Origin: a virus
Length of the DNA stretch: 64,000 nucleotides
Direction: 5' to 3' (one strand)
Virus record (IMG/VR): IMGVR_UViG_3300023174_009221
Shown here: in pieces, positions 4,668-34,029 of the stretch
Layout: each line of letters starts with the position of its first letter
Numbering within the stretch: the first letter of the stretch is position 1
Notes under the pieces: model-generated
The model's input: the letters and a program-made list of their open reading frames with translations, nothing else
Told to the model about the DNA's origin: nothing
Databases searched by the model: none
Made by a program: the position numbers and the translations under genes

Positions 4668-5291
4668 ATGGAAAAAAATTTACACAAATATCAATATAGG
4701 GTTAGTAAAAAAGAAAGGCAAAATAAATACGGTCAACTTTCACCTGTGTTATGGTTTACCGGACTATCAGGCTCAGGTAAATCAACAATAGCCAATGGAG
4801 TAGAGTCAAAACTTTTTGAATTGGGTTATAAAACTTATGTACTCGACGGAGACAACATTAGAATGGGTCTTAATAAAGATCTTGGATTTTCAAATGAAGA
4901 CCGAAAAGAAAATATTAGAAGAATTTCAGAAGTCGCACAGCTTTTTTCAGATTCTGGAACACTAACTCTAACTGCCTTTATTTCACCATTTATCGAAGAT
5001 AGGGATCAAGCCAGAGAAATTATTGGAACTAATTTTATTGAAATATATGTTAGCGCCTCACTTCAAAGCTGCGAGTCAAGAGACCCAAAAGGGCTCTATA
5101 AAAAAGCTCGACTTGGTGAAATTAAAAACTTTACCGGAATTGACTCACCGTATCAGGCACCCGATTCACCGGAGATTGTTATAGATACAGACACCCTAAC
5201 AATTGAACAATCAGTTGATTTAGTTATCGAATACTTAGTTAATCAAAAAATAATCAAAAATTTAAAAATTACAGAAAATGGAATGGTCTAA
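4668..5291 (+). CDS. cysC: adenylyl-sulfate (APS) kinase
   Basis: [13 protein letters not shown]-loop, [36 protein letters not shown]. Confidence 0.97.
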
Positions 5292-5748
5292 AATTAATCA
5301 CGGTGGTCAGCCCACTAACAACCCAGATAAAAAAAGAGCAATTTTTATTGGTAGATACCAACCTTATCACTGGGGTCATATCGAACTAGTAAATCAAAAA
5401 TTAAATGCTGGAGTTGCGGTTTTAATTATGGTAAGAGACATTGAACCAGATGAAAAAAATCCGTTCACAACTCAACAAACTTGTGATATGATTAAAAAGT
5501 ATCACAAATCAAAAGGAGATGATGTTGAAGTTATGATAATTCCTGATATAGAATCAGTTAATTATGGCAGAGGAGTTGGTTATGAAATTAATGAATTCAC
5601 ACCACCAGACAATATTGGATTTATCTCTGCCACTAAAATTAGAGACTCGATAAAATTAGGAGATGACAATTGGAAGCAAATGGTTGATGATTCAATACAG
5701 GGGGACATTGTGAATTACTTAATGTCTTCTGAAAGTCAAACTATTTAA
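5278..5748 (+). CDS. HxGH-superfamily (cytidylyltransferase-like) nucleotidyltransferase
   Basis: [15 protein letters not shown] and ISATKIR motifs; overlaps cysC. Confidence 0.85.
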
Positions 5749-5772
5749 TAATTTTTTTACCACCTTAAATCA

Positions 5773-6219
5773 ATGTCTAAAAAAGAGAACAAAACATATC
5801 AAATTAGGTTTAACACTAATTCAAAAGACGATTCATCGAGATGGCGTTTAATTGAAAATGGAAAAGAAATTATAGTCGGTGATATCATAGTTGATGGTCA
5901 TACTAAAACGACTAAGGATTGGATCGAAGAAATTGGTGATTGGAAGTGGCATATTTCATGCGTTGGTAATTGTGTGATAAAAAATAATGTGGCACATATC
6001 ACAACGATAAAACAAGAATCAACCATTGTTAGGCATATCTTAAAAACAATTTCTTATAGATTTGTTGGAACAATCACCACTGTTTCTGTTGCCTACTCAC
6101 TTGGGGCTTCTATTGAAATGTCTTCGCTTTTAGGAGTTGGTGAATTAGTTCTAAAGCCGGTCCTTTATTTTTTACACGAAAGAGTTTGGTATAAATACCT
6201 TTCAATAAAGAAAAAGTAA
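5773..6219 (+). CDS. DUF2061-like membrane domain fused to an unknown N-terminal domain
   Basis: RHILKTISYR...LYFLHERVW pattern, a family often found beside cysC. Confidence 0.75.
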   Translation: MSKKENKTYQIRFNTNSKDDSSRWRLIENGKEIIVGDIIVDGHTKTTKDWIEEIGDWKWHISCVGNCVIKNNVAHITTIKQESTIVRHILKTISYRFVGTITTVSVAYSLGASIEMSSLLGVGELVLKPVLYFLHERVWYKYLSIKKK

Positions 6220-6258
6220 AAAATATAATTTAATATATAAAAAAAATTAAATTATACC

Positions 6259-6726
6259 ATGTCTGATATAAGATCGTCTTTTTACGAAGCAATAAATAAG
6301 GCAAATACACAAAAACCGAAACCTCGTCCAAAAAAAGTTAGACCGGTTGAAAAAATTTCTTTAGAAGAACAAGTTAACCTTATCTTAAACGAATCATATT
6401 CAGCGTTAATAGATACCAGCATTGTTATTAATAACCAACCTCTTATTGATTGGCTTTGGGAAAAAACAAAGCTTGATGAAAAAGAACAACTAAGAAATCA
6501 AAAAATTGAAGAGGAATTAAAATTAATCAACGATCTAAGGGAAGTTGCTAGAAAAGAATGGAGAAACAGAATGAGAATGTTGGAATTTACAGCATTCAAT
6601 CCTTCGGCCGCCGCTGCTGCGGCATCATCTTCGGCTGGTGCGGGTGGAGGCCGATTAGTCATTACCGTTGACCCATCAACTAATACTTATGTAGTCGATG
6701 ATTACGTCGATAATTACCTTGTATAA
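6259..6726 (+). CDS. hypothetical late protein
   Basis: TTAATATATA at 6230-6239; Ala/Ser/Gly linker; acidic C-terminus. Confidence 0.7.
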   Translation: MSDIRSSFYEAINKANTQKPKPRPKKVRPVEKISLEEQVNLILNESYSALIDTSIVINNQPLIDWLWEKTKLDEKEQLRNQKIEEELKLINDLREVARKEWRNRMRMLEFTAFNPSAAAAAASSSAGAGGGRLVITVDPSTNTYVVDDYVDNYLV

Positions 6727-6769
6727 ACTCATTACCAAAGTTTTGGTGAATTAAAAATAAATAGTAAAA

Positions 6770-7003
6770 ATGAAAATTACTTTACAAAATCCGAAGAAAG
6801 TTGTTTTACAAGAAGAAAAGAGTAAAACAGTTTCAACACTAACAGTTACAAGAGTGGTTGACTTACCGAAGAAGAAAATTGTAAGAGCATTCGTAGAAGA
6901 AATCGAAGGTCCTATTACACTTTGGGAAGGCGCAGCTTATGATGCAGCTGGCCAGTGGACTGATTCTGATGTTCAAGCTAGACTTACTCAATTGTACTCT
7001 TAA
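6770..7003 (+). CDS. small hypothetical protein, possibly fibre-associated
   Basis: 77-aa ORF followed by a terminator hairpin. Confidence 0.7.
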   Translation: MKITLQNPKKVVLQEEKSKTVSTLTVTRVVDLPKKKIVRAFVEEIEGPITLWEGAAYDAAGQWTDSDVQARLTQLYS

Positions 7004-7018
7004 TATTGAAGCACTTTC

Positions 7019-7053
7019 AAAAAAGGGTCTCATTTTTATGAGACCCTTTTTTT
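7019..7053 (+). terminator. intrinsic terminator
   Basis: AAAAAAGGGTCTCAT-TTTT-ATGAGACCCTTTTTTT. Confidence 0.85.
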
Positions 7054-7103
7054 GTTTTAAACAAATAAATATTCACTTATATAATAATAAAAAAATTAAT
7101 TTA

Positions 7104-7979
7104 ATGTATTCAATCTTCCATGTAGAAGGAGGTATAGGAAAAAATATCTTAGCAACCTCTGTAATAGAATCACTCAAAAAATCAGATCCAGAAAGAGAAA
7201 TTATCGTAGTAACGGCCTGGCCTGCTGTTTGGTTCAACAATCCAAATATCTCTCAAATTTATCCACTTGGTCAAGTGGCTAACTTTTATAAAAAATTTAT
7301 TAAGAATCAAGATGTTAAAGTATTTAGACAAGACCCCTATCACACAGAAGACTATATTCTAAATAGAAAACACTTAATAAATATCTGGTGTGATTTGATT
7401 GGGGTAGAAAATAAATCACAAGGTCCAAATTTACACTTCTCACCACTTGAATTACAAAGTGTTCAATTAAAAATGTTAAGCGGTGCTCAAAAACCAATAT
7501 TCTTACTACACTCAAATGGCGGAGGCCAAAGTGGTAGACCTTACTCTTGGTACAGAGATATTCCAATTCAAAATTTACAAGATATTGTAGAATACTTTAA
7601 AAACGATTACCATATTTATCAAATTGGATATGAAAATCAACTAATGATAGAAGGGTGTCACAGATTAACATTAGACACTAGAGAAATTTTAGCAAGTGTT
7701 ATATTTTGTAGAAAAAGATTACTGATTGATTCCTTTTCTCAACACGCTGCTGCTGCGTTGGGTCAAAAATCAGTTGTGTGTTGGGTTGGAAATAAACCAG
7801 AAGTATTAGGTTACGCATCACATATTAATGTGGTTCCAAACATTGAGCCAAAATTTGATACGCTACACTCTTCGTATCTAGATGACGCTGATATCTCAGG
7901 AAATCCAATTCAATTTCCATACGATAGACTCAAAATCTTTGATTCAAATGAGATAATAAATAAATTAATAGAACTATGA
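7104..7979 (+). CDS. GT-B glycosyltransferase, GT9/heptosyltransferase-like
   Basis: HVEGGIGKNI start, YQIG, LLIDSFSQHAAAALG, VLGYASHIN. Start moved from 6939 to ATG 7104 because the longer frame crosses a terminator. Confidence 0.8.
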   Translation: MYSIFHVEGGIGKNILATSVIESLKKSDPEREIIVVTAWPAVWFNNPNISQIYPLGQVANFYKKFIKNQDVKVFRQDPYHTEDYILNRKHLINIWCDLIGVENKSQGPNLHFSPLELQSVQLKMLSGAQKPIFLLHSNGGGQSGRPYSWYRDIPIQNLQDIVEYFKNDYHIYQIGYENQLMIEGCHRLTLDTREILASVIFCRKRLLIDSFSQHAAAALGQKSVVCWVGNKPEVLGYASHINVVPNIEPKFDTLHSSYLDDADISGNPIQFPYDRLKIFDSNEIINKLIEL

Positions 7980-8782
7980 GAGAAATTCATTTCATTAGTG
8001 GACTACCAAGAAGTGGCTCTACATTACTAACAAATGTTCTTTTACAAAATCCAAAATTTGCGACAACAGCAACTTCTTCTCTTTTAGAATTTCTTCTTCA
8101 AATTAGAGACAATTGGAATAAATTAGAAGGACATAAAGTTTATCCAGATGGACAAGATAAATGGTCAGTCATTAGATCAATAATGCAAAATTATCATAAA
8201 ACGGATAAGAATATTATTTTTGATAAAAACCGTGGATGGACTACACATATTGAGTTTGTAGAAAAAGTTACTGGTAAAAAACCAAAAATTATCGCGTGTG
8301 TAAGAAACTTAGAAGATATATGTTCATCTTTTGAGAAATTGTTTAGAAGAAATAGAGCCGATGGTGAGATACATGGTGAATTTTCAAATCCAAAAATGAA
8401 AACCATCGATGGTAGGGTTGAAGTTTGGGTTGCTGACGAAGGTGTTATAGGAAGACCGTATGTTTCATTACTCGATACTCTGCAACGCGGACTGGGTGAT
8501 AGAATTTTAATTTTTCCATACGAAGAATGGACAGCTAATCCCGAGATGTGGTTTAGAAAATTGTATGATTTTATTGGAGAAGATTATTTTCAACATGATT
8601 TTAATAATATAGTTCAAACCATTAGAGAAAATGACGCTGGTTATGGCTGGGGAGAAAATCTCCATGAATTAAGAACCGGTAAATTAGAATATTTAAAATC
8701 TGACGCCACAAAAATATTAGGAGATATTTGGCCAAAAAAACTACATAATACCGAATTTTGGAAAAAAATGAAAAAATCCTAA
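7976..8782 (+). CDS. PAPS-dependent sulfotransferase
   Basis: 5'-PSB motif SGLPRSGSTLL, 3'-PB motif VRNLEDICSSF, later YEE..NP; ATGA-coupled to the GT. Confidence 0.9.
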   Translation: MREIHFISGLPRSGSTLLTNVLLQNPKFATTATSSLLEFLLQIRDNWNKLEGHKVYPDGQDKWSVIRSIMQNYHKTDKNIIFDKNRGWTTHIEFVEKVTGKKPKIIACVRNLEDICSSFEKLFRRNRADGEIHGEFSNPKMKTIDGRVEVWVADEGVIGRPYVSLLDTLQRGLGDRILIFPYEEWTANPEMWFRKLYDFIGEDYFQHDFNNIVQTIRENDAGYGWGENLHELRTGKLEYLKSDATKILGDIWPKKLHNTEFWKKMKKS

Positions 8783-8802
8783 CCCAAAGTTAGGATTTTT
8801 TT
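8771..8802 (+). terminator. intrinsic terminator
   Basis: AAAAAATCCTAAC-CCAAA-GTTAGGATTTTTTT. Confidence 0.8.
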
Positions 8803-8859
8803 ATTTTTTATTTTTTTTGAAATTAGACTTTTAATATATAAAAAAAATTAAATAAAATT

Positions 8860-11367
8860 ATGTCACTAATATTAAGGCAAGTAAAAGGTAGTAAATTGAC
8901 CATTCCTGAAATGGACGACAATCTCACCTACTTAGAAAGTTTAGCTCTTTCAAATAGCGGAAGCAATTACGCACAAACCGTAGGAACTCAGCAAGTTATA
9001 TCAGACGGTGATACAGGTACAGTTGTTAGTGTATCTATAACTGTAAACAACCACCCAGTATTAGTAACCGTAACAGGAGATGCTAATAATCTTGCAGCAG
9101 CTTCTTTCTGTAGATTACAGCTTTATAGAGATGGTGGTCCAATTGGAAATGTAGTTCAATGTGAATCATCTGCAGCAAATGAAAATGTTCCCTATTCGAT
9201 TTCTTATGTCGATGAACCAGGAACTGGAACATTTACTTATACATTAGAAGCAATCCAAGTTTCTGGAGGTAATTTCCAATTTGGTGAAGTTAATGGACCA
9301 GTTATTTCAGCAATTGAATTAGTAGTAGGAACTGGTTCTGGCTTTGAAGAAAACAACAATTCTGTAGTCGACTCAACTTATTCTAATACAAAAGGTGGTG
9401 AATATAACACTATTTGTTGTTCGTGCAATTCCACAATAATCGGTGGTAGTAATAATGAAATATTAGGAAGTTACTATAATTCTGTCTGTGACAGTGGAAT
9501 TTTCGGAGGACGTAATAACACCATCTGTGACTCGGAACAATCTGTAATTATTGGTGGATGTGATAATGAAATATGCACAAGTGATAATTATAATGCAATT
9601 ATAGCTGGATGTTATAATAGAATTTGCGGAGGTGTTGATTATTCAGCTATCGTAGCAGGTGCTTGTAACGTAATTTACGGTGATGCTGATGCTGATTACT
9701 CAGCTATTTTAGCAGGTTGTTACAACCAAAACTGTTACTCAGAATATGGTGTTATATTAGGAGGTGCTTGTAACCGTTTATTGGATAATAGTGATTACAG
9801 TGGAATTCTAGCTGGATGTTGCAACACAATTGAAAACGACTCTTGTAATAGTGCTATTGTAGCGGGTTGCTACAACTGTATTTGTGGGAATAATGATGCT
9901 TCTGCAATTTTAGCTGGTTGTGCAAACCGAATCTATAGTAATTCAGACCAATCTACATTAGTGGGTGGATCTTACAATCGTATTTATAACAATAGTCAAA
10001 ATTCATCAATTATTGCGGGTAGAGATGCTTGTATTCAAGATTATAGTTGCAACTCTACAATATTAGGAGGTTATGATAACTGTATAACTTGTAATTCTTG
10101 TAACTCGGCTATAATAGGTAGCTATGATAGTTGTATGTGTTTAAATGTTCAAGGTTCTTCAATTATATCAGGTGACGATCATTGTATGAGAGGTGGTTTT
10201 TCTTATTTCACATTAGTAACTGCACCATACACACAGTATTGCACTACAGGATTTGTATGTGCTAGTTCAATGTTAGCAGGTTGTGATAATAGAATCACAA
10301 ATGAAGTAAGAAACTCTGCGATAATAGGCGGTAGAAATAACGACATCTGTGGAACAGTTTGTCAATATGACCAATGTACTAGTTATACTTGTCAAACATG
10401 TAATTCAACAATTATTGGTTCAAAATCTACATTAATTCACAACTCTTGTAATAGTAGTATAATAGCAACAAGTGAAGGGGCTATACTTTGTTCTAATTAT
10501 TCATCAGTTATAAGTTCAAAAGGATATTACTACAACTGTTCATACATTGGAGGATCTGACAGGTCTACAATAATGTCATCATATCTGTCCAGAGTAATTA
10601 ATTCAAATCAAGCATCTGTAATATCGACATCAGATTATACTTGTATTTGTGATGGTAATTCAGTTGCAATAATCGCTGCTAATGAAGGATGTATCAACAA
10701 TTCAAGTAGATCTGCTATATTAGGTGGATATGATGGATGTATCAATAATTCTAACAATACATCAATTTTAGGCGGAACATACAATATTTTAGTAAATACT
10801 TACAACTCAAGTGTTATTGGGGGTTATGGTAACCACATATGTTGTAATTCAAATGACTCTTCAATTTTAGGTGGTAGAAATAATAGGATAAAAAATTACT
10901 CTAATAAATCTTCAATAGTTGGAGGTAGTTCTAACAGTATATGTAATAATTCTTCTTACTCATCAATTATAGGTGGTCAAAACAATCAAATTAAAGACTT
11001 TTCAAACTGTTCATCAATTATAGGTGGTGGTAGTCATATAATTACTTATGGCTCTAATTGCGCAGGTATCATAGGTGGTAGAAACAATACAATTAGCGAC
11101 TCACAATGGTCATCAGTGTTTGGAGCGGTTGACTCTTGCATTTGTGGTTCAACAGGTTCTATGATATTTGGTGGTAGCTGTAATGCTATTGTTAATACTG
11201 ATAATGTTATCTTAATTCCTACATTGACTACAGCTACTTTCTCTTCCGGTAATTTTGATAAGTGGAAACTTGGAAAAACAGCTTCTGGGGCTGTTAGTTT
11301 GGATGCAAATCAATACATAGAAGTAGAGATAAATGGTATCGTTTATAAGTTAGGAGTAGTATCTTAA
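8860..11367 (+). CDS. Cys-rich repetitive (beta-solenoid) fibre/virion protein
   Basis: N-terminal LILRQVKGSKLTIPEMDDN fibre-attachment-type motif; about 16-17-aa S-x-I-x-GG-x-x-N-x-I repeats; about 53 Cys by hand count; TTAATATATA at 8831-8840. Confidence 0.75.
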   Translation: MSLILRQVKGSKLTIPEMDDNLTYLESLALSNSGSNYAQTVGTQQVISDGDTGTVVSVSITVNNHPVLVTVTGDANNLAAASFCRLQLYRDGGPIGNVVQCESSAANENVPYSISYVDEPGTGTFTYTLEAIQVSGGNFQFGEVNGPVISAIELVVGTGSGFEENNNSVVDSTYSNTKGGEYNTICCSCNSTIIGGSNNEILGSYYNSVCDSGIFGGRNNTICDSEQSVIIGGCDNEICTSDNYNAIIAGCYNRICGGVDYSAIVAGACNVIYGDADADYSAILAGCYNQNCYSEYGVILGGACNRLLDNSDYSGILAGCCNTIENDSCNSAIVAGCYNCICGNNDASAILAGCANRIYSNSDQSTLVGGSYNRIYNNSQNSSIIAGRDACIQDYSCNSTILGGYDNCITCNSCNSAIIGSYDSCMCLNVQGSSIISGDDHCMRGGFSYFTLVTAPYTQYCTTGFVCASSMLAGCDNRITNEVRNSAIIGGRNNDICGTVCQYDQCTSYTCQTCNSTIIGSKSTLIHNSCNSSIIATSEGAILCSNYSSVISSKGYYYNCSYIGGSDRSTIMSSYLSRVINSNQASVISTSDYTCICDGNSVAIIAANEGCINNSSRSAILGGYDGCINNSNNTSILGGTYNILVNTYNSSVIGGYGNHICCNSNDSSILGGRNNRIKNYSNKSSIVGGSSNSICNNSSYSSIIGGQNNQIKDFSNCSSIIGGGSHIITYGSNCAGIIGGRNNTISDSQWSSVFGAVDSCICGSTGSMIFGGSCNAIVNTDNVILIPTLTTATFSSGNFDKWKLGKTASGAVSLDANQYIEVEINGIVYKLGVVS

Positions 11368-11383
11368 TAGATAAAAATATAAC

Positions 11384-11412
11384 AAAAAACCCAGTCAAAT
11401 GACTGGGTTTTT
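11384..11412. terminator. bidirectional intrinsic terminator
   Basis: AAAAAACCCAGTC-AAAT-GACTGGGTTTTT between convergent genes. Confidence 0.85.
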
Positions 11413-12429
11413 TTATTTGTTAAATCTTGAAAAAGCATTTTGAGAAATTACTTCAAATCTTACTTCTCCAACAAAATCTTTTAAGGTTCTACTATCTGTA
11501 TATGACATGGCAGAACGCAAATAATCGGTAAAGTTTTCAGTCCAACCAGATAGTTTAGAATCAACTTTATTATATTTAGTGATTCCTTCTCCGGTTTTTA
11601 ACTCAGCTCTGTTCCAAGATTTTTGAACTTCTTTAGTAGACATCCCTCTGTAATATTTATAGACTGGCATTCCAGCATCAAAAGCCTGGAGCGCTTTTGC
11701 AGAATCGACTTGATAATATTGATCTTGTGAGTCTTTCATAAAATTCTCACCACAACTTTCTAAACATTTATTAAAGATACCACCAAGCATTACATAGTCG
11801 GCACCAAGAGCCAAGGCTTTGATAATCTCTGAATAGTTCCTAAAACCACCATCTGCGATAATTTTTGTTGGACTATCATAAGCGGTTTTGAAGTAAGCAC
11901 ATTCTTCTATAAGAGATGCCATCGGATAATGTATGGAAACATTGGCAGAGGTCGTACAAGCCGAACCTCCACCAATACCCGCTCTTATATAATCGACGCC
12001 TATTTGACAATACTTAAGATAAGTATCCGGGTTGGCGATATTCCCTACCATTAACTCAATTTTGTCACCCCAAGTTTCTTTAATTAATTTAGCAGTATCA
12101 TAAAGCTTTTGCATATGTCCATTTGCGACATCAATCAGAACCTTTTTAGGCAGTGTGGATTTTTTATCCATAAGTTCAATTATTTCATCTAATCCATATG
12201 AATAAAAGTAGTTTTCATTTCTTAAATCTGAAAACTTTATATGACGAGGAAGACAGATATTAATATTATTACTTTGAAAATGTTGAATATTAGTATCGTC
12301 AATTACTTTGTCCATAGGTGCTGTGAATAGAGGAAGCATTCCACTATAAGTTGGTTCAATTTCTTTTCTTGAAGAAATGCTACTTAGTGATTCAGGGACA
12401 ATTGAGATGTCGTTCCAGTCGAATTTCAT
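11413..12429 (-). CDS. IMP dehydrogenase / GMP reductase family protein without CBS domains
   Basis: TAPMD, IDVANGH, GNIA, AGIGGGSACTT catalytic Cys loop, ADGG, YRGMST, LRSAMSY. Confidence 0.9.
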   Translation of the reverse strand: MKFDWNDISIVPESLSSISSRKEIEPTYSGMLPLFTAPMDKVIDDTNIQHFQSNNINICLPRHIKFSDLRNENYFYSYGLDEIIELMDKKSTLPKKVLIDVANGHMQKLYDTAKLIKETWGDKIELMVGNIANPDTYLKYCQIGVDYIRAGIGGGSACTTSANVSIHYPMASLIEECAYFKTAYDSPTKIIADGGFRNYSEIIKALALGADYVMLGGIFNKCLESCGENFMKDSQDQYYQVDSAKALQAFDAGMPVYKYYRGMSTKEVQKSWNRAELKTGEGITKYNKVDSKLSGWTENFTDYLRSAMSYTDSRTLKDFVGEVRFEVISQNAFSRFNK

Positions 12430-12444
12430 AAAATTATTAGACTT

Positions 12445-12759
12445 TTAATAAAAAATATATCTATCGGATTCTTTAATACAATATACAGATATAGGATAAA
12501 GTCTGATTTCATTTTGGTTTTGTTCATCAATTAGAACTCTTAAAGTTCCGTCAATCACCTCGTCATTCAAAATTTTACAAGTTGTGTTGTTTAGACCACT
12601 GAAAATTGACCAATTGATATCATCTTCTGGTGTGATGGATAAAAAGTGTTGTTTACCAATTATTTTACCACCAAAACCATCTCTAAAATAAGCCTCTTCG
12701 ATAAGTGTTTGGATTTCTTCAGTTTTTGATAGCTCTACTTTGATTTCGTATTTTACCAT
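12445..12759 (-). CDS. hypothetical protein
   Basis: 104-aa ORF co-oriented with the reductase. Confidence 0.65.
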   Translation of the reverse strand: MVKYEIKVELSKTEEIQTLIEEAYFRDGFGGKIIGKQHFLSITPEDDINWSIFSGLNNTTCKILNDEVIDGTLRVLIDEQNQNEIRLYPISVYCIKESDRYIFY

Positions 12760-23732: not shown

Positions 23733-24328
23733 GATTAAATAGTCAATCGTCACAGTTCATTTTTAACCTACCAAGTGATTTTCTACCAAGAGAAATAATA
23801 GAAAGTTACAATCCAATACTTGAAAAGAACTGGATTCAATATGAAGATATCATATCGTATTTAAATTCGACGATAAAAAGTGTCAATTTTCCAGGTCTTT
23901 CTTTTGATATGCCAAAACAAATTTTAATGAGAGGCAAAGAAAGGCAATATAAACCGGCTAAAAACCCTCAAGACATCACAACATCTCACGACCTAACAGT
24001 GACTTTTAGAAGCGTGGATTCTGACTTGAATTACTGGTTGATGTTTGATATTATCACAAAACACTATTTAGATGTTGTAAATTTATTTGTCTATCCATTT
24101 TCTATCACTTGCGTGGATATTCACCGAGATGCTATTTATGTAATTAGATTTTATGAGATTATATTAAAAGCTATGTCTGAAAACACATTTAATTACTCGA
24201 TGCAAAAAATATCGTCTAAGGAATTTAACATCACTTTTCACTTTAATTTTTATGATATCGAATTCCTGCTAGATCAAAGCAAAGTTATATCTCTAAAAGA
24301 AACTCCGATTATAATTCAGAGGATTTAA
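23729..24328 (+). CDS. T4 gp3/gp19-fold tail completion or tube-like protein
   Basis: IKSVNFPGLS, LTVTF..VDSDLNYWLMFD, FNITFHF pattern typical of this fold. Confidence 0.6.
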   Translation: MRLNSQSSQFIFNLPSDFLPREIIESYNPILEKNWIQYEDIISYLNSTIKSVNFPGLSFDMPKQILMRGKERQYKPAKNPQDITTSHDLTVTFRSVDSDLNYWLMFDIITKHYLDVVNLFVYPFSITCVDIHRDAIYVIRFYEIILKAMSENTFNYSMQKISSKEFNITFHFNFYDIEFLLDQSKVISLKETPIIIQRI

Positions 24329-25191
24329 TTAAAATCTTTGATGATTTCTACTAATTTTTCCGCTCTTTTAAGATAGGTATGATCTTTCTTGGCTCTATTA
24401 TATCCAGCTTCGGCAATAATCATTCGTTCATTATCATTTAAGAGATAGTATTTAATTTTTTCATCTAGCTCTGTCAAATTTCTATAAACGACTATTTCTT
24501 TGTCTATCTCAAAAAGATTTTCAATACCAGGAGTCCAGTTGGTGACAAGTAAAGTTTTACATCCACAAGTTTCAAATGTCCTATAATTTATATCGTCAGC
24601 TATATTACAATTCAGATGTATTTTATAAGAGTTTATAGCCCGGACCATATCATCACCTATTACAAAAATATCCTTTTTTATATTATATTTATCGAGTGAA
24701 TCAATAACATGACCTCTATTAAGAATGTTGCCACAGAAACCAACATCGACTGTTTTCTCGATGGTCATCGGATACATCAAATCATCTGGATATGAATTAG
24801 GAAACCAATAAGATTTTTTACATAAATTTTCAAAATACGGCAAATACCGCTGTGTTGAATTGAGGTGTATATCTATATTTAACAGCTGGCAAAGTTGTAA
24901 ATGTTGTTGTAAGACGCAATGGCTATCAATGGACCAAAATATTTTTATTTTTTTACTTTCTGAGATTTCTTTTAATGGCATCCAACTCGAGGTGTAGTTT
25001 TCTATAATAAAGATAACATCTGCCCATTTTTCTATCTCAAAAAATGGTGTGTTGAATTCATCATAGTTTAGACCCCATACTTTAGACTCAACGCCATCAA
25101 TTTTAGATAGAGACCTGTGTAGATTTAGAGATTCTCTAAAATTTTTATTTTTCTCATGCCTTCCGGCTTCCTGTATTATTACTATTTTCAT
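24325..25191 (-). CDS. CgeB-like (Glyco_trans_1_2) glycosyltransferase
   Basis: DVGFCG, YKIHLN, INYRTFE..GC, EIVVY, IAEAGYNRAKKDHTY. Confidence 0.88.
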   Translation of the reverse strand: MKIVIIQEAGRHEKNKNFRESLNLHRSLSKIDGVESKVWGLNYDEFNTPFFEIEKWADVIFIIENYTSSWMPLKEISESKKIKIFWSIDSHCVLQQHLQLCQLLNIDIHLNSTQRYLPYFENLCKKSYWFPNSYPDDLMYPMTIEKTVDVGFCGNILNRGHVIDSLDKYNIKKDIFVIGDDMVRAINSYKIHLNCNIADDINYRTFETCGCKTLLVTNWTPGIENLFEIDKEIVVYRNLTELDEKIKYYLLNDNERMIIAEAGYNRAKKDHTYLKRAEKLVEIIKDFN

Positions 25192-25197
25192 TTTAAA

Positions 25198-25761
25198 TCA
25201 TTTATAAAGATATATAGTCACGTCATTTGGTAAATAGTCATGTCTTATGGCAAATTTATTAGATAATTGTTCAATTATTTCTATCAACTCACCTGTTGAG
25301 ACATACTTCATATCACTATCTTTCAGACCAGTTGTTAAATTTGACAAAAAGTTAATTGATAGACCCCTTTCACACATGCACCACATTTGTCTTATAATAT
25401 CGTCGGTATTTTGTTTCCAATTTTCATGGAAGCAAAAAATACCAGAAGCGATTATCCAATCAAATTTATCATTCATCTCGAACAAACTTTTTTGAAAGAA
25501 TTTTTTGTCTGGGTATTTTCTACTAGCTATGGTTATCGCACTTTCTCTGAGATCTATACCGGTATAATTTTCTATAAATACAGAGGCGTCTCCGTATCCA
25601 CAACCAACATCTAAAACAGAGTCTTCGACCTTAATACCTATTTCCAATAAAACTTCCAATCTTTTTGATTGTGAGTATAAACTACCCCATCCCAAAGATT
25701 TGACATCATCTGTATTGCCAAACTTTTTTTCATAAATGTTATTTAAAAAATTAGAATCCAT
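25198..25761 (-). CDS. class I SAM-dependent methyltransferase (glycan cluster)
   Basis: VLDVGCGYG, YTGID, FDWIIASGIF. Confidence 0.88.
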   Translation of the reverse strand: MDSNFLNNIYEKKFGNTDDVKSLGWGSLYSQSKRLEVLLEIGIKVEDSVLDVGCGYGDASVFIENYTGIDLRESAITIASRKYPDKKFFQKSLFEMNDKFDWIIASGIFCFHENWKQNTDDIIRQMWCMCERGLSINFLSNLTTGLKDSDMKYVSTGELIEIIEQLSNKFAIRHDYLPNDVTIYLYK

Positions 25762-26587
25762 TAATCAATACATCTTCTTTCTTGACACCATCATCATTGA
25801 AAATATATTTAACAATAGGCTCAATTAAATGGTAGTTATCACCAAATGGTCTAAGAAAATTACATAATACATATTTGTCATTTACCAACATATTTTGATC
25901 TATTGCCCACCAAGATCTATCAATCCAATATTTATGAATATCGACACCTCTTTCAATAAAGCAATATTGTTCTTCGTCTAAACCATGATTATGTAATAAT
26001 ACACGCCATAATGACTCATCTGAAAATCCTTTCCAGCCGGATAAATCGGGTATATTATCAATTGATTCTTTATGATCAAAGACTTTAATTCCACACCAAG
26101 ATTTAAATAAATCCTCATCAGATAGATTATGTGGATTTACAATTTTTTGAAACAGAAAAGATTCACCGGTGATATTACTTATCGGAAATTTACCTTCATC
26201 TGTCCCGTTGCCTTTATACACTTCTCTTCCAATAAACAATAGCTTACCAACTTCTCTTTTGGATAACCTATCAATTACAAAGTTTTGCTGCAAAGGTATA
26301 GTATCGATATCCTCAATCATACAAATTTCTTGTCCAAATCTACCAGCTAAGATGTGTCTTGCCATTTTAGCAAGATTTGGAGTAGGAATTCCATCAACAA
26401 TAGGAAATAAATGCACATCTCCGTATTTTTTTATCCTTTTTATTAAATCATCATCTTCGATTCTATCGGTAACAAAAGCTAAAGAAATTTTTACTTTCGG
26501 AAAATATTTCTCCCAAGATTTACAAACTATGGGCCAAAAGTCGATGAAGTGCGAATCATCAGAACTTACTATCACTCTGTCAAACAT
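25751..26587 (-). CDS. putative GT-A glycosyltransferase
   Basis: FIDFWPIVCKSW start, EDID (DxD) motif, SDE motif; cluster context. Confidence 0.55.
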   Translation of the reverse strand: MFDRVIVSSDDSHFIDFWPIVCKSWEKYFPKVKISLAFVTDRIEDDDLIKRIKKYGDVHLFPIVDGIPTPNLAKMARHILAGRFGQEICMIEDIDTIPLQQNFVIDRLSKREVGKLLFIGREVYKGNGTDEGKFPISNITGESFLFQKIVNPHNLSDEDLFKSWCGIKVFDHKESIDNIPDLSGWKGFSDESLWRVLLHNHGLDEEQYCFIERGVDIHKYWIDRSWWAIDQNMLVNDKYVLCNFLRPFGDNYHLIEPIVKYIFNDDGVKKEDVLINGF

Positions 26588-26588
26588 T

Positions 26589-27155
26589 TTAAATTTTATT
26601 TTTTATTATATCAATTATAGGTTTTTTTATCATTTTGGTTTCTTGTTGAAATTCGACTTTTATATTATTAATATAAAATTTTTCTAATTCTAAATACTTT
26701 CTACCGGAAATACCGGATATGTAAGTTGTTGCTCCGTTTTTCAAACATATATCAACTAGTCTATCCGAGGACTTTAAAATAGTTGGCTCATCAAATACTA
26801 TATTAGTTTTTATTTGTAGAATATCTCTTATTTTGAGAATAATTTTAGAGTTAGTTTCTGACAAGTTATCACCGACGCAATCGTCAAACAAATCCAAAAC
26901 ATTTCTATATCCAGGTAACATATTTTTAATTCTTAACCAATCTTTTTCGTAGTTCAAATATAACTTTTCAGTGATTGGTTGAAGACCTTTATTGACAGAC
27001 ATAGTATACCATTTATCACCTATATTAAATCTATTTTGATAATTATTTTTTTCAAATTGACAATGTTTAAGAATAACAAAAGTATCAGAATCTTCCATTT
27101 TTTGAAAAAATGGATAATAAGGAAAAAAATTAGGCTGATGTATAGAGATTGTCAT
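26589..27155 (-). CDS. WbqC-like protein
   Basis: IHQPNFFPY, QFEKNNYQNR, RLVDIC..GATTYISG.SGRKYL; start reassigned to ATG 27155. Confidence 0.85.
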   Translation of the reverse strand: MTISIHQPNFFPYYPFFQKMEDSDTFVILKHCQFEKNNYQNRFNIGDKWYTMSVNKGLQPITEKLYLNYEKDWLRIKNMLPGYRNVLDLFDDCVGDNLSETNSKIILKIRDILQIKTNIVFDEPTILKSSDRLVDICLKNGATTYISGISGRKYLELEKFYINNIKVEFQQETKMIKKPIIDIIKNKI

Positions 27156-27159
27156 ATAT

Positions 27160-27990
27160 TTAAACTGTCTTATAAAAATCAATTAAACTATCAAATAGAT
27201 ACTCAGGTTCTATATCAGAAACGTTATCAGTTTCAAATACATATTTGTAATTTATACCCTTTTTTGTAAAAATATTATTTTCTGGAAATTTCTCTAAATC
27301 TGATTTTATACCATACATAAAAATAGGAGTCTTCTCAGAATTCATCACGTTTAAAAAAACTGAACCACTTACATTGTAAATTACAAATTTCGAAACAGCT
27401 TGAAGATTCAATTGTGTCTTAATATCCGGTCTGATTATATAATTGACTTTGGTTAAATCAGATTGAAAATTATCATTAAATAAAACCACATTTATTTCAA
27501 ATCCAACAAACTGTTTAATTATTTTTTCCAAAAAAATATTAAATTTATTTATGTTGTAGTTTCTGTGCTCATGAGTAGTGTGTATTCTTGGAAACAATGT
27601 AATAATATTTTCATTTTGATTCTTTTTTGTATTCAAAGGCGGATATTTTCCGAAATCACCAGTCAAATCTAGTTTAATATCAAGTGGATAATCATTGAAA
27701 ATTTTTCTTCTATGGTAAACATTGAAACCATCATTTTCATATTCACCTACTAATTTATTTATATCCTCATCTGACATTGTGTTAAGACTATCACTTCTAT
27801 CGAATTTAGAAAGGAACCACTCTGGAATTTCAACAAATTTGTCTACAAAATCCTCATAAAAAATTTTACTTTCTTTATACGAACAAACATATAAGGTTTC
27901 GAAATTACTTCTTAATTTTCTTAAAATACCCTGGAATGAAATTATCTCGTATCCAAATTCCCCAGTAAATAAAAAAAATGCTTTTTTCAT
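27160..27990 (-). CDS. putative GT-B (GT9-like) glycosyltransferase
   Basis: GEFGYEI start, ITLFPR..HRNY, NVSGSVFL; cluster context. Confidence 0.5.
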   Translation of the reverse strand: MKKAFFLFTGEFGYEIISFQGILRKLRSNFETLYVCSYKESKIFYEDFVDKFVEIPEWFLSKFDRSDSLNTMSDEDINKLVGEYENDGFNVYHRRKIFNDYPLDIKLDLTGDFGKYPPLNTKKNQNENIITLFPRIHTTHEHRNYNINKFNIFLEKIIKQFVGFEINVVLFNDNFQSDLTKVNYIIRPDIKTQLNLQAVSKFVIYNVSGSVFLNVMNSEKTPIFMYGIKSDLEKFPENNIFTKKGINYKYVFETDNVSDIEPEYLFDSLIDFYKTV

Positions 27991-27992
27991 TT

Positions 27993-28751
27993 TTAAGCCT
28001 CTAAAAATTTATTTATGTAGTATGATAAAGTCAACTTTTCGAAATCATATTCTTTATTAATGATTTCAAAATATTTTTCCTCTAAAAAATTTGAATTTAC
28101 TTGTTGCCAATCATCAATCCAAAGAATAGGTAGGTTTTCAAAATCTTTCATAGCAACACACCTTTTTACTATCGGAATTGTTCTCAAATACAAACTCTCC
28201 CATATTCTATGTGTATCTATTCCGTTTCCACGAGGACAAAGAGTAAATTTGTGATTGTATATATTATCTATATAACTTGAGTGACCTTCATTTGTTCTAT
28301 CATAGACAGTTGTAGTGGTCCAGATTTCTTCGGAAAACATTTTTCTAACCATGCTTCTTTCAGATAGATAAGTCTCGTCACGAAAACCAATATAGCATAA
28401 ATTTTTAATAATTTTTTTATCTTGATTCTTTTCAATTATTCGGTCTAAATTTCCTATGATTTTATCATGTGAGAACGAAGGCATTCCTATTGGCATGGCT
28501 AATATTCTATCAGAAATCATATTTAGATTCTGACCTATCATAAGTTTTAACTCGTCTTTAATTAAAAAATTAGATTCATTTATTTCCCAATCACCACCCC
28601 CAATAAAAACTTTTTCATAATCTTTATCATATCTATTGTAAACTATATCGTCTACTTTAATCCAGGGAACATTTATCTGTGATAAAAGCATTAGAAATCT
28701 ATCCCATTCGATTATTTCTTCTTTTATGATGTAAAATTCTTGTAATTTCAT
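27993..28751 (-). CDS. exostosin/GT47-like glycosyltransferase
   Basis: HKFTLCPRGNGIDTHRIWESLYLRTIPIV. Confidence 0.82.
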   Translation of the reverse strand: MKLQEFYIIKEEIIEWDRFLMLLSQINVPWIKVDDIVYNRYDKDYEKVFIGGGDWEINESNFLIKDELKLMIGQNLNMISDRILAMPIGMPSFSHDKIIGNLDRIIEKNQDKKIIKNLCYIGFRDETYLSERSMVRKMFSEEIWTTTTVYDRTNEGHSSYIDNIYNHKFTLCPRGNGIDTHRIWESLYLRTIPIVKRCVAMKDFENLPILWIDDWQQVNSNFLEEKYFEIINKEYDFEKLTLSYYINKFLEA

Positions 28752-28753
28752 AA

Positions 28754-29311
28754 TTAAATATTAAACCAATTTTTAAAGGACTCGAAATCGAATTCCCTAG
28801 CATGTAAATACCACCTTTGTTGACCATCATTATAATTGTTATATTCCATACATAACCAACCATCTTCAAATTTGATTAACTCTATACCATGTTCGTCACA
28901 TATAGACTCGGTGTCTTTATTCCACTTATTAAACGGAGGGATAAATACTTTAGCATTTACCAAACTAGCACTTGTTAATATACTAAGCTCCTGAGCTTCC
29001 TTTGTGAGTAATCTATGATCCACATGAATTAATCCATGTGAAGCCATAATAGCCTTATCATGCAACTTTGGTATACCGGCTTTATCAACTCGATAAAATA
29101 TTCTGTAATCAGAATGCGCGTTGTATATTTTAGGGAAAATTCTTTGTTTTGAAATATCACTTTTCTCATTAGACATATCATTTACCAAAGGAGAAACTCC
29201 CCAGAGAACTTTACAATCCGGAAATCTATCGAATAGAAAATCCGTCATGTCGTTTACTAATTTCATATCTGCGTTAATACAAACATCATCAAATCTAAAT
29301 ATTTTACTCAT
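28754..29311 (-). CDS. polysaccharide-deacetylase-like (NodB/DUF2334-type) protein
   Basis: FRFDD, ASHGLIH, FIPPFN motifs. Confidence 0.75.
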   Translation of the reverse strand: MSKIFRFDDVCINADMKLVNDMTDFLFDRFPDCKVLWGVSPLVNDMSNEKSDISKQRIFPKIYNAHSDYRIFYRVDKAGIPKLHDKAIMASHGLIHVDHRLLTKEAQELSILTSASLVNAKVFIPPFNKWNKDTESICDEHGIELIKFEDGWLCMEYNNYNDGQQRWYLHAREFDFESFKNWFNI

Positions 29312-29985
29312 TATCCTATTATATTTTTAATTAATTTCCAGTGATCTGGATGTCTTTGGTCATTTTCATCATAAATTTCACCTACAAATTGATAATCAAT
29401 TCTGTCGGTTGGAAACGGTTTAGTTTCGCCACCATAGTTAAGACCAAACTCTGAGTGCTCAAAAGCGTATTCTTTTAAAGAAGGGTATATCTGTGATAAA
29501 AAATCTTGGTCACATCCTTTCTTCGAATATCTATTCCATTCCGCTATTGAATTAGACAAATTTGATTCCCTTAAGATACCCCTTCGACAACCCCACATTC
29601 CACCTAATATAGGAACTGTATGATAAGGGTGGTCTCTCATAATATGAATGTCTTTATCGGACTTTAACCACTCATCTATGGCAAAAAACTCCCTGTCTGT
29701 AAATCTACTATCACAATCTCTTGAAAGAAAAATATCAACTTCTGGATCTTCTACAGCCCAGAATCTCCAAAACATGCCGTGAAAAGAATCTTTAGAATCC
29801 ACTAACACAACTTCAACACCATCACCTTTAATCGTTTCAATGAGTTCTTGATTGCAATTTTTATCTATATAAAATCTGCAAATCCAATCTGGAAAGTATT
29901 TTTTAACACCTTCAATATTTCTGATTGCACCAACCCAATACATTGGGTGATCTCCCCATAGAGAATAGGCTACGACATTTTTCAC
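29311..29985 (-). CDS. putative glycosyltransferase
   Basis: YSLWG, GMFWRF, SRDCDSR (DxD), HIMRDHPYH, ILGGMWG, DQDFL. Confidence 0.65.
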   Translation of the reverse strand: MKNVVAYSLWGDHPMYWVGAIRNIEGVKKYFPDWICRFYIDKNCNQELIETIKGDGVEVVLVDSKDSFHGMFWRFWAVEDPEVDIFLSRDCDSRFTDREFFAIDEWLKSDKDIHIMRDHPYHTVPILGGMWGCRRGILRESNLSNSIAEWNRYSKKGCDQDFLSQIYPSLKEYAFEHSEFGLNYGGETKPFPTDRIDYQFVGEIYDENDQRHPDHWKLIKNIIG

Positions 29986-30722
29986 TCTAAAATTGATTTA
30001 ATTTTCTGAACCACACCATCAAATCTAGACTTGTTTGTCATTTTATGCAGTGGTGATACTACCCGGTCTACCCATCTTTCTCTTTGGTGCCACATATGAA
30101 TTATAGTGTTGTTTAACAAATTTGTTGTTTGAAACTCCTCGCCAAAAACTGGCTCTAAATAATGAAACCTACACCCGGCTTCTTTTAACACCCACATAAA
30201 ATCATAATACGGTTCAGTTTCAGGCTTCCAAATCAACCCAAGGGGTTTTCCAGAAGATCCGAACTCCATATCCCATTCATAGTGCGAATGGTTCTTTTTT
30301 TCATACGGGTATTCTTCGATCCACTCACTTTTGAATTGACAAACTGCTGTTCGGTTGTTCCAAGAGTCAATACATTTTCTATTCATTATCATAAAAAATG
30401 AATTAAGAGCCATGTGATTTCCACTTCTATACTCAAAATGGCCGTCTGGTGGTCCGGCTATATCATAGTTGTTATCGGTCATATATTGAATCAAATTGTG
30501 AATTTCATCTGCTGATGTGATAAAGCAATCTTCATCAATATGAACATACCAATCGGCTTCATAACTTTTAGCAAAATCTAACCATTGATACCAAACAGTA
30601 AACCAACCAGATCTACCATCAAATTTGACTATATGTGATTCTCGGAAAAATTTTCTAATACAAGCTGACTGAAGCTCCTGTATATCAGAAAATGTGGAGG
30701 TGGTGAAAAATACTATCTTCAT
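29982..30722 (-). CDS. putative GT-A glycosyltransferase
   Basis: YVHIDEDCF (DxD), NSFFMIMN, EPYY, HMW. Confidence 0.6.
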   Translation of the reverse strand: MKIVFFTTSTFSDIQELQSACIRKFFRESHIVKFDGRSGWFTVWYQWLDFAKSYEADWYVHIDEDCFITSADEIHNLIQYMTDNNYDIAGPPDGHFEYRSGNHMALNSFFMIMNRKCIDSWNNRTAVCQFKSEWIEEYPYEKKNHSHYEWDMEFGSSGKPLGLIWKPETEPYYDFMWVLKEAGCRFHYLEPVFGEEFQTTNLLNNTIIHMWHQRERWVDRVVSPLHKMTNKSRFDGVVQKIKSILE

Positions 30723-30730
30723 TTAATTTT

Positions 30731-31324
30731 TTATTTTTTTATACCCCAGAAATATAAATCACAGTGTTTCGTCTCAACTTCGAATCTATAGGAAGAAAAT
30801 ATTGCATCAACATCAATGCAATTTCTGACATCTTCTTCTGTTACGTTTCTATAATACTCAGAATCCCAGTCTTCTCTGAAAACATTTGGCATAGTTATCC
30901 AATTTTCAGCAGAGTTACCTTGTGATGTTACAAGTTTTTCTCTATCTATCTTATCCTGTGTTTTAGTCCCGTGAATAGGTCTACCTGTAGTTGCGCAAGT
31001 AAATATTAAATACCCACCGGGTTTTAACATTCTAACAGCGTTCTGTATACTTTCTTTATAAAACGGATTGTGCTCCCAACACTCACAAGATATAATAGTA
31101 TCAAATGTTTCATCCGGTGCATCGTATTCGTTTGCAGGACAAACAACATCAACTCCTTTTCCTGGACCTATGTCCAATCCAGTAAAGTCGCAATTATCAA
31201 ACCAAGGTTTTTCGTTTCCATTAACATCAAATGATCCAATGTCTAAAACTTTACAGTTTGTAAATGCAGATGGGAATTCTTTTTTTATTCTGTCTAAATA
31301 ATCTTTTTGTTCTTTATGTGCCAC
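30731..31324 (-). CDS. class I SAM-dependent methyltransferase
   Basis: VLDIGS.DVNG, GLDIGPGKGVD, FDTIISCECWEH, LKPGG. Confidence 0.9.
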   Translation of the reverse strand: MAHKEQKDYLDRIKKEFPSAFTNCKVLDIGSFDVNGNEKPWFDNCDFTGLDIGPGKGVDVVCPANEYDAPDETFDTIISCECWEHNPFYKESIQNAVRMLKPGGYLIFTCATTGRPIHGTKTQDKIDREKLVTSQGNSAENWITMPNVFREDWDSEYYRNVTEEDVRNCIDVDAIFSSYRFEVETKHCDLYFWGIKK

Positions 31325-31372
31325 TCTTTTTTTGTTTTTTATATTTTAATTTTAATAAGGTACAAGACTAAG

Positions 31373-32074
31373 TCATATTTTAATTCTTTCTTCTACCGGT
31401 AATAATTTTCTCCTATTCCAAGTTATTTCATCTTCTTTCCACTTTTGATTATAAGCCCTATCTGCTTCATCTGAGTTTCTTTTACCAGCTGCATAGTGAA
31501 GATGTTCGAAAACCGTCTCGTCGTTTAATCTATCATCATAAAGTAAGCCCAAATCTTTTAAGTTATTATATAACTCACAATCTGAGAACATATGATTGTA
31601 AGAGGGGTGGTAAATTACGGAGTTTAACTTTTTTAAACAACCCCAAGTCATAATAGGAATTGTAATAGCCGGATGTAACATATTAGAAGAATCCGGTAAT
31701 TGATAACCATCTCTAACCATAAGACCAACATCTCCCATTTTTTCAAATTTATTTATTAAATAGGTGTCCCAATTTTGAGGAGCTAAAAAATCATCAGAGG
31801 CAAAAATAACAATATCACTTTCATCTACTACACCCATTTTAATTCCTAAATTAGAAGAAAGTTGATAAGAAGGATAACAAACACCAATCTTATTGGTGTT
31901 TAGAGTTATTATATAATCGTTTTTCAAATAATCTCTTAAATTATCAGCATGTTCCACCCAATTAACGGCGACATATGTTTTTATATTGTCTGGCGCATCA
32001 GACCGCCGAATCCACTCAGAGTGTGCGTCTTTAAATTGCTCTGGACGAATTGTGGCCCATAAAATATGTATCAT
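31373..32074 (-). CDS. GT2-like glycosyltransferase
   Basis: ATIRP, IVIFASDDF..PQNWD, YHPSY.HMFSD.EL, FEHLH. Confidence 0.75.
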   Translation of the reverse strand: MIHILWATIRPEQFKDAHSEWIRRSDAPDNIKTYVAVNWVEHADNLRDYLKNDYIITLNTNKIGVCYPSYQLSSNLGIKMGVVDESDIVIFASDDFLAPQNWDTYLINKFEKMGDVGLMVRDGYQLPDSSNMLHPAITIPIMTWGCLKKLNSVIYHPSYNHMFSDCELYNNLKDLGLLYDDRLNDETVFEHLHYAAGKRNSDEADRAYNQKWKEDEITWNRRKLLPVEERIKI

Positions 32075-32080
32075 ATCTGC

Positions 32081-34025: not shown

Positions 34026-34029
34026 TATA

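Follow-up and report, generated by a model that had tools for sequence, protein, structure and literature searches.

A possible phage system for placing sulfated sugars on a beta-solenoid fibre, suggested by conserved gene neighbourhood

What could a giant phage do with activated sulfate of its own making? The question is raised by a locus of the IMG/VR virus record IMGVR_UViG_3300023174_009221, of which a stretch of 64,000 nt (the window; G+C 29–39%), belonging to a giant uncultured phage, was analysed. Positions 4,668 to 11,367 contain cysC, whose product converts adenylyl-sulfate (APS) to 3′-phosphoadenylyl sulfate (PAPS), together with genes for an HxGH nucleotidyltransferase (NT), a DUF2061 membrane protein, a GT9-like glycosyltransferase (GT), a sulfotransferase (ST) and an 835-aa fibre-like protein (Table 1). 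Published phage surveys place cysC under assimilatory sulfate reduction (bioRxiv 10.1101/2020.02.13.942896). A preliminary description of the locus had instead proposed that the PAPS serves to sulfate a glycan on the fibre, the capsid or the host surface, and all the genes that it named were recovered here, by Pfam and TIGR scores for the PAPS genes and the ST, by fold for the GT and by repeat analysis for the fibre-like protein. Our results raise the possibility of a two-module phage sulfation system with its target, placing sulfated sugars on the adjoining fibre; we put its chances at about even, the acceptor being suggested by gene neighbourhood and by analogy with TibC/AIDA. The fuller statement, that many large phages combine a minimal ATP sulfurylase with CysC and that a GT9-type/ST pair coats a beta-solenoid tail fibre with sulfated O-glycans, is offered more tentatively, at somewhat less than even chances. 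Decoration of the capsid, the "coat" of the preliminary description, found no support.

The proposal is carried mainly by conserved linkage. In four kindred IMG/VR contigs of 198–465 kb (L001–L004), three units lie side by side despite inversion and re-ordering, namely cysC-NT-DUF2061, the GT9-like and ST genes with a small conserved gene (g6770), and a gene for a Cys-rich solenoid protein (~1,600–1,800 aa in L001–L003). In three of the four contigs the first unit has the opposite orientation to the second, and the fibre gene is then divergent from cysC and not downstream of the ST gene. Whole-record searches covered three relatives, G001, G002 and G003 (CheckV completeness 84%, 95% and 98%), the two near-complete ones being 385 and 465 kb long. 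G002 contains a second, paralogous GT9-like/ST pair (36% and 35% identity); its neighbours are an adjoining GT1/4-type transferase gene and, some 5 kb away, the gene of another solenoid protein. With this second ST as query, 175 viral relatives were found, the best 80 loci were kept, and 43 of them were flanked by 8 kb or more on each side. A GT9-like gene was present in 39 of these 43 loci, mostly abutting the ST gene, and cysC-NT-DUF2061 in 21, usually starting a few bases from the ST stop codon, so that a five-gene operon is common in this second ST lineage.

When all flanking proteins of the 43 loci were clustered, one further family proved as frequent as the GT (39/43), consisting of large, S/G/N/T- and Cys-rich proteins with diverse N-termini. 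At least five SxIxGGxxNxI coils occur in 44 of its 59 members, versus 1 of 125 other long open reading frames (ORFs) in the same loci. A solenoid ORF was found within 10 kb in 32 of the 39 pair-bearing loci versus none of 18 control loci, which carry the cysC trio without the pair (Fisher p 1.5e-9, a value that overstates independence because the loci come from related phages), indicating that the solenoid tracks the GT/ST pair and not the PAPS genes. After de-replication at 90% ST identity it was found in 21 of 24 clusters; in this lineage the solenoid gene usually lies upstream on the same strand, 20–6,700 nt away. The co-occurrence across phages that the preliminary description had named as a check is therefore kept, specifically for the GT9-like/ST pair with solenoid fibres. 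A locus search with the fibre protein P0001 as query found nothing.

Other glycosyltransferases recur beside the pair, including a second GT9-like enzyme, GT8, a PF11397 GlcNAc-transferase and GT1/4. The PF11397 gene (228 bits) lies about 7 kb from the pair at L060 17229–18470 and in four similar loci; this family is known from protists, where it glycosylates the protein Skp1 in the cytoplasm.

The GT gene starts at 7104 and not at 6939, from where the ORF had been called, since the homologues listed are all ~291–297 aa long, except for the window's own record P0003 (336 aa), and since a terminator-like hairpin and a promoter-like site (7056–7085) precede the ATG at 7104. The interval of the preliminary description also holds two further ORFs, g6259 and g6770. 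The window GT had no PF01075 (GT9) match at the Pfam gathering score, and TIGR02201 reached E 0.006 at best. Nevertheless, its AlphaFold2 (AF2) model (pLDDT 96) matched 3TOV by Foldseek (E 7e-15, TM 0.74), with further matches to 1PSW, WaaC and TibC. By VIA-align, five GT9-type chains scored Z 19.5–23.8 (3TOV 23.8, 1PSW 21.3, 2H1F 20.1 and TibC 19.5 among them, with 4RAP inside the range) versus 10.6 for the next GT-B. "GT9-like" is thus confirmed at the level of the modelled fold, not by Pfam. The family has 745 representatives (50% clustering, E up to 1e-3), and a profile of the 71-member alignment A1 aligns with E. coli RfaF across the donor-site motif DSxxxHxAAAL (E 0.023). In the C-lobe donor-binding motif D-[ST]-G-x-x-H-x-A-A-A-L, D209, S210 and H214 hardly vary across A1. 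Two distant fused members pass the GT9 Pfam model marginally (22.4–22.9 bits vs 22). The long members of the family, considered as possible GT-ST fusions, were rejected as such, their partners being FkbM methyltransferases or GT25. A related-locus search with protein P0123 returned the L004 contig again and nothing else.

The ST passes both Pfam models (Table 1) and matches phrog_27463 (E 3e-49). Across seven family members (alignment A3), the 5′-PSB motif LPRSGSTLL does not vary, nor do V, R and S within the 3′-PB motif VRNxxDxxxS. The GT and ST genes overlap by an ATGA at 7976–7979, which bears out the translational coupling noted in the preliminary description. Both enzymes match soluble cytoplasmic enzyme families or folds exclusively, and no flippase, polymerase or initiating transferase was found among the ORFs scanned in the glycan genes of the window, so that a purely cytoplasmic process would be compatible with the gene content.

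The 835-aa product consists of an N-terminal helix, a knob (aa 36–154), ~35 coils of a 17-residue beta-solenoid (aa ~190–785) and a small C-terminal domain. The repeat is strict (x-S-[SA]-I-[IL]-[GA]-G-x-x-N-x-I-x-x-x-S-x) and rich in Ser, Gly, Asn and Cys, with Cys, Tyr and acidic residues at variable positions; Cys amounts to 53 residues (6.3%), and to 7.8–9.4% in the solenoids of L001–L003. AF2 predicted a single-chain beta-solenoid (pLDDT 74.6 overall, ~90 in the solenoid core). The knob is a TNF/C1q-like jelly roll with structural matches to the cyanophage A-1(L) short-tail-fibre CBD, the Sf6 and HS1 tail-needle knobs, the phi812 spike knob, BclA-type exosporium tips and trimeric TNF-like lectins. 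As a 120-residue module, 45–58% identical and at varying positions, it recurs in proteins with Mtd_N, Tail Collar, Peptidase_S74 or collagen domains. Fold matches in BFVD were to phage and giant-virus fibre proteins, including giant-virus collagen-like fibril proteins. Because the knob is shared with tail-fibre proteins, solenoid homologues also end in S74 domains, and PHROGs for tail fibre, baseplate wedge and virion protein flank the module in L002, the earlier label of fibre appears well supported from sequence and model.

Table 1. Positions in the window of the features of the sulfation locus and of the separate glycan operon
Feature	Position	Strand	Evidence
cysC, adenylyl-sulfate (APS) kinase, APS to PAPS	4668..5291	+	PF01583 E 1e-68
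HxGH nucleotidyltransferase (NT), 156 aa	5278..5748	+	PF01467 E 8e-7; 14-nt overlap with cysC
DUF2061 membrane protein with extra N-terminal 88-aa domain	5773..6219	+	PF09834 E 7e-15, residues 89–139 (C-terminal third)
g6259, 155-aa ORF with Ala/Ser/Gly-rich stretch towards the C-terminus	6259..6726	+	
g6770, conserved small protein, 77 aa	6770..7003	+	69–79% identity in L001–L004
Intrinsic-terminator-like hairpin, end of the cysC to g6770 unit	7019..7052	+	15-pair stem and T-run
GT-B glycosyltransferase (GT), GT9 (heptosyltransferase) fold, 291 aa	7104..7979	+	AF2 and Foldseek
PAPS-dependent sulfotransferase (ST), 268 aa	7976..8782	+	PF13469 E 4e-16 (60.5 bits vs 27); PF00685 E 4e-13 (49.9 bits vs 22)
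Terminator-like hairpin after ST, weaker than 7019..7052	8764..8808	+	
Fibre-like protein, proposed acceptor, 835 aa	8860..11367	+	Repeat analysis, AF2, module sharing
Bidirectional terminator-like hairpin separating the fibre gene from the convergent GMP-reductase-like gene	11384..11413	.	
Separate glycan operon, ~14 genes: gmd (GDP-mannose dehydratase), fcl-like epimerase, GT47-like, Glyco_trans_1_2, several GTs, two methyltransferases, WbqC, several family-less ORFs	24325..34782	-	

On the PAPS side, CysC lies far above the curated cut-offs (TIGR00455, 266 bits vs 138.7; NF003013, 279 bits vs 163), and the translation shows its Walker-A P-loop, GLSGSGKST. The ORFs scanned in the window include no cysH, cysD, cysI or sat, as the preliminary description had noted for sulfate-reduction genes, and G001–G003 contain no PF01507 (PAPS reductase/CysD), PF01747 (Sat), PF01077 (sulfite reductase) or PF00459 (CysQ), while each of the three has an ST. 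Since PAPS reductase/CysD, Sat and sulfite reductase are missing from relatives that are 95% and 98% complete, and the ST is always present, the PAPS would lack an assimilatory outlet; the gene content supports the earlier reading that it serves sulfotransfer and not assimilation. Furthermore, in distant cysC lineages a divergent ST accompanies cysC at a distance of 0.4–7 kb in seven records and at 2.6 kb in an eighth.

The cysC-NT-DUF2061 trio is a separate and widespread viral module. Among 37 viral loci carrying a cysC relative, examined over ±10 kb, all three genes occur in 24, in varying order, cysC with DUF2061 in six, and cysC alone in seven; NT, where it shares the locus with cysC (24/37), mostly adjoins it, and DUF2061 accompanies cysC in 30/37. 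CysC and NT are fused in a single frame of 306–368 aa in L022 (902–2005), L025 (738–1841) and L050 (10022–10939), and DUF2061 is fused to the N-terminal side of CysC, in frames of 238–401 aa, in nine loci on unrelated viral contigs (L021 9743–10945, L043, L047–L049 and L051–L053 among them). Two loci that lack NT, L041 and L042, have a strong match to the PAPS_reduct family; beside this CysD-like gene they carry long CysN-CysC-type frames instead, a pattern that favours NT as the APS maker elsewhere. Sat exceeded its cut-off in none of the cysC-locus viral records examined. The sole catalogued huge phage matching cysC, LR756500.1, showed no NT, GT or ST within 12 kb by tblastn. For DUF2061, the literature searched held nothing on function, and a search for longer members gave one uninformative protein. 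L050, a complete 157-kb phage with terminal repeats, carries in a row (6994–12685) RmlD, a PfkB sugar kinase, DUF2061, the CysC-NT fusion and a GT2-GT9 fusion (PF01075, 58 bits), and its genome has no recognisable sulfotransferase.

NT carries the HxGH motif and ISATKIR (ISxTxIR type). The trio pattern and the CysC-NT fusions parallel PAPS synthase, in which a sulfurylase is joined to APS kinase, so that NT is a good candidate for the APS-forming step, as a non-canonical ATP sulfurylase. Like PAPS synthases and Sat-CysC or CysN-CysC proteins, the phage module couples or fuses an adenylyl-transfer enzyme to APS kinase; it differs from them in that this enzyme is a 156-aa NadM/PPAT-like HxGH protein, not Sat or CysD/CysN, in that its activity is predicted, and in its third partner, DUF2061. 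NT is the sole HxGH nucleotidyltransferase in the near-complete G002 and G003, and the Protein Atlas places it in a mostly viral cytidylyltransferase-like cluster. The Sat-type model PF01747 matched neither the window NT nor anything in G001–G003. A sub-threshold Sat match (13 bits, model positions 28–90) falls exactly on the NT gene beside cysC in G029 (35417–35599) and G030 (13686–13868), within L051 and L052. NT may represent a third kind of ATP sulfurylase, and the CysC-NT fusions are ready-made constructs for asking whether it is one.

An alternative, which we consider rather unlikely, is that NT is no sulfurylase and makes ADP-sugar for the GT9-like enzyme, in the manner of HldC, or NAD, with APS coming from host CysDN or Sat. 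HldE is known as an adenylyltransferase link to ADP-heptose for GT9 enzymes. The nearest families of NT are NadM-type NMNATs, a likeness that counts against the proposed role because an NMNAT-like enzyme could make NAD or ADP-sugar, and in L050 the PfkB kinase, the CysC-NT fusion and the GT2-GT9 fusion are grouped. GT9 enzymes use ADP-heptose, which is made by an HxGH adenylyltransferase (PMC4358343). However, the NMNAT match is far under cut-off (TIGR01527, 44.4 bits vs 181) and only the HxGH half aligns (residues 20–94), with all NMNAT and CoaD model scores well under their cut-offs. NT follows cysC and not the GT gene, the trio occurs without a GT9-like gene within 10 kb in 23 of the 37 cysC loci, and three loci fuse NT to CysC itself. 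No phage-encoded ADP-heptose pathway was found in the relatives searched: a GmhA (SIS_2) match occurs in none of them and PfkB only in G001.

Taken together, these data suggest the following scheme. In the cytoplasm of the infected cell, the first module (cysC, NT and DUF2061) would supply PAPS, NT converting ATP and sulfate to APS in place of the usual ATP sulfurylase and CysC then phosphorylating the APS. In the second module, the cytoplasmic GT9-fold enzyme would add a sugar to an acceptor, and the ST would presumably next sulfate that sugar with PAPS. The acceptor would be the adjacent fibre, O-glycosylated on exposed Ser/Thr along the solenoid coils during its synthesis in the cytoplasm. 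The glycan may be further extended by nearby glycosyltransferases, namely the second GT9-like, GT8, PF11397 GlcNAc-transferase or GT1/4 enzymes, or by the glycan operon of the window, and the product would be a virion fibre bearing sulfated sugars. Family HMMs for the GT9-like and ST proteins found no paralogue elsewhere in the window, where no second solenoid was seen either; the operon at 24–35 kb is therefore not a second copy of the system, and it may contribute additional sugars to the same glycan.

The closest working analogue is the BAHT enzymes TibC/Aah with TibA/AIDA-I, where, as here, the gene of a GT9-type GT-B enzyme lies beside that of a long, regular beta-solenoid adhesin. TibC heptosylates many serines in the beta-helix repeats of TibA/AIDA-I in the cytoplasm, for example in ...NSGGAVITNTSAAVSG... 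(PMC4358343), and it ranks with the best structural matches to the phage GT (Z 19.5 over 257 aligned residues). The proposed phage system differs in that its substrate would be a fibre and not a secreted autotransporter, in the coupled ST, and in encoding no heptose pathway. Compared with WaaC and RfaF/WaaF (GT9, PF01075), which give the best fold matches and share the DSxxxHxAAAL motif, the phage GT falls under the Pfam GT9 threshold, is shorter than the solved GT9 chains that it matched (320–381 aa), and lies in the context of fibre and ST and not of LPS core genes.

Besides the relatedness of the loci behind the Fisher test, several findings weigh against a sulfated fibre glycan made in this way. 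The phage GT is not a member of the TibC family: its 291-aa model aligns to TibC 97–386 and lacks the N-terminal beta-barrel (1–97), the thumb (a beta-hairpin) and the four-Cys iron finger; it is ~90 residues shorter than the TibC chain (381 aa), and its four scattered Cys fall in no conserved A1 column. With no heptose pathway encoded, the phage genes point to no particular sugar donor for the GT. Among solved structures, the ST is closest in sequence to protein-tyrosine sulfotransferases and not to those acting on carbohydrates, a match that extends over its first 70 residues only. Terminator-like hairpins part the fibre gene from the GT9-like/ST pair in the window, no solenoid was found in 7 of the 39 pair-bearing loci, and the reverse test, from solenoid fibre to pair, had two usable loci (S74-type), both without the pair within 10 kb. 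Finally, the usual acceptor of GT9 enzymes is the inner core of lipopolysaccharide (LPS) and not protein, and receptor-modifying genes would be expected beside a receptor-binding protein as well.

These last two points favour the main rival, a serious one although we regard it as rather improbable, namely that the target is the host envelope. Working on the membrane's inner face, the GT9-like enzyme would attach a sugar to host LPS core or to a capsule precursor; sulfation of that sugar by the ST would alter the receptor, so that superinfection would be blocked or progeny kept off debris; the adjacency of the fibre gene would reflect co-evolution of receptor-binding and receptor-modifying genes. 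Rhizobia sulfate LPS and capsule in the cytoplasm, and in P22-like phages seroconversion genes lie beside tailspike genes, gtrABC adjoining the P22 tailspike gene. The closest GT folds are the LPS heptosyltransferases RfaF and WaaC and a Veillonella GT9, some members of the GT family are fused to GT25 LPS glycosyltransferases, and the DUF2061 partner is a membrane protein. Nevertheless, it is a single structural class of fibre, the solenoid, that the pair follows, with N-terminal heads that differ widely between these fibres, and in G002 the duplicated pair lies beside a duplicated solenoid. The phage looks lytic and huge, with no integrase seen in the window, and the short, regular 17-residue coils without long loops make the solenoid unlike a polysaccharide-cleaving tailspike.

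Very unlikely, in our view, is direct sulfation of the protein, in which a TPST-like ST would act on fibre tyrosines (for example D-Y-S at coil starts) and the GT separately. TPST1 and TPST2 are the best solved-structure matches of the ST profile (E 2e-9 to 3e-6), and the fibre has 47 Tyr, several of them after Asp (VDYS, ADADYS, SDYS, QDYS). However, the match is confined to query residues 4–72, the PAPS-binding N-terminal part, with no similarity to TPST over the full length including the acceptor-binding part; Asp/Glu-Tyr sites number 7 versus ~3.5 expected from composition, a weak excess; and the near-obligate coupled GT9-like partner (39/43 loci) would be left unexplained. A boost to sulfur assimilation, with extra PAPS feeding host CysH, CysIJ and CysK to yield cysteine for fibres of 6–9% Cys, is the usual reading of cysC as an auxiliary metabolic gene (AMG) in the surveys cited above and would suit the unusually Cys-rich neighbouring fibres, but it is hardly credible here, given the missing assimilation genes, the ST that is constant in this clade and recurs near cysC in other lineages, and the presence of the trio in 18 control loci with no solenoid nearby.

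A broader parallel comes from mycobacteriophages and giant-virus fibrils, in which viral glycosyltransferases modify surface proteins of the virion that are produced in the host cytoplasm. Phage virions can be glycosylated (Freeman et al. 2023, cited in PMC11256854), as in the mycobacteriophage Che8 and its relatives; other glycosyltransferase families are involved there and the target is capsid and tail tube, whereas here it would be the fibre. The rhizobial NodPQ-NodH system and LPS/K-antigen sulfation resemble the locus in having a dedicated PAPS supply beside a carbohydrate ST, independent of assimilation, and differ in being cellular, in using a canonical sulfurylase, and in their acceptors, Nod factor or envelope polysaccharides. 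In one viral record (G021), an ST accompanies a CysD-like gene and a CysN-CysC-type frame. No phage PAPS-to-sulfotransferase pathway, sulfated phage virion, or association of GT9-like enzyme, ST and solenoid was found in the literature searched. The enzymes belong to known superfamilies, and what seems new, as judged by comparative genomics, is the quantitative tie between pair and solenoid and the TibC-type analogy.

Phage cysC, routinely counted as an assimilation AMG, would here and in dozens of viral contigs be part of a self-contained sulfation pathway, which would change how such genes are read in viromes. If the fibre is the acceptor, a sulfated glycan would be a new post-translational modification of virions and would bear on how hosts are recognised, how the phage behaves in mucus and how it is recognised by the immune system. 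It could be the first sulfated component of a phage virion, a polyanionic fibre resembling mucins and glycosaminoglycans that could govern adsorption, mucus adherence and resistance to proteases or antibodies, and the pair could provide a compact enzyme set for decorating beta-solenoid proteins.

Terminator-like hairpins that follow g6770, the ST gene and the fibre gene divide the locus into three units; a promoter-like site (8831–8858) lies ahead of the fibre gene. The small protein g6770 is a companion of the GT9-like/ST block in this clade, encoded just 5′ of the GT9-like gene in L002–L004 and just 3′ of the ST gene on the opposite strand in L001, and it is absent from the second ST lineage. 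The other small ORF, g6259, had no Pfam, PHROG or NCBIfam match and no tblastn match in L001–L004, and it probably stands outside the sulfation system. Immediately 5′ of cysC, a 191-aa ORF (4062–4637, +) encodes a protein marked for secretion by a clear N-terminal Sec-type signal peptide, MSMRYLFIILIATLCVSQVFS; this ORF had no family match and no counterpart in L001–L004. On the other side, a GMP-reductase/IMPDH-family gene (11413–12429, −) converges on the fibre gene and holds the only nucleotide similarity of the region (75%) to the catalogued 635-kb megaphage LR745206.1.

Against catalogued phages, the window as a whole gave only short nucleotide matches, to "uncultured phage" records of 460–640 kb and to Lak megaphages. 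Its gene content includes gp32, the RNR small subunit, two tRNAs, very large fibre-like proteins and its own chaperone set (720–3182, +, and 34782–36881, −), comprising GrpE, a full-length DnaJ with zinc-finger domain and a ClpB-type disaggregase. The window encodes a further fibre of another kind, a 1,764-aa protein (54520–59814, +) that matches collagen-like minor-tail and tail-fibre PHROGs; no GT/ST pair adjoins its gene. A flavodoxin/FMN-reductase-like gene (37848–39794, −) is split by an intein with a LAGLIDADG endonuclease, and tRNA-Met and tRNA-Ser (37607–37775) lie directly downstream of it; in L050, an intein-bearing gene is likewise found near the sulfation genes.

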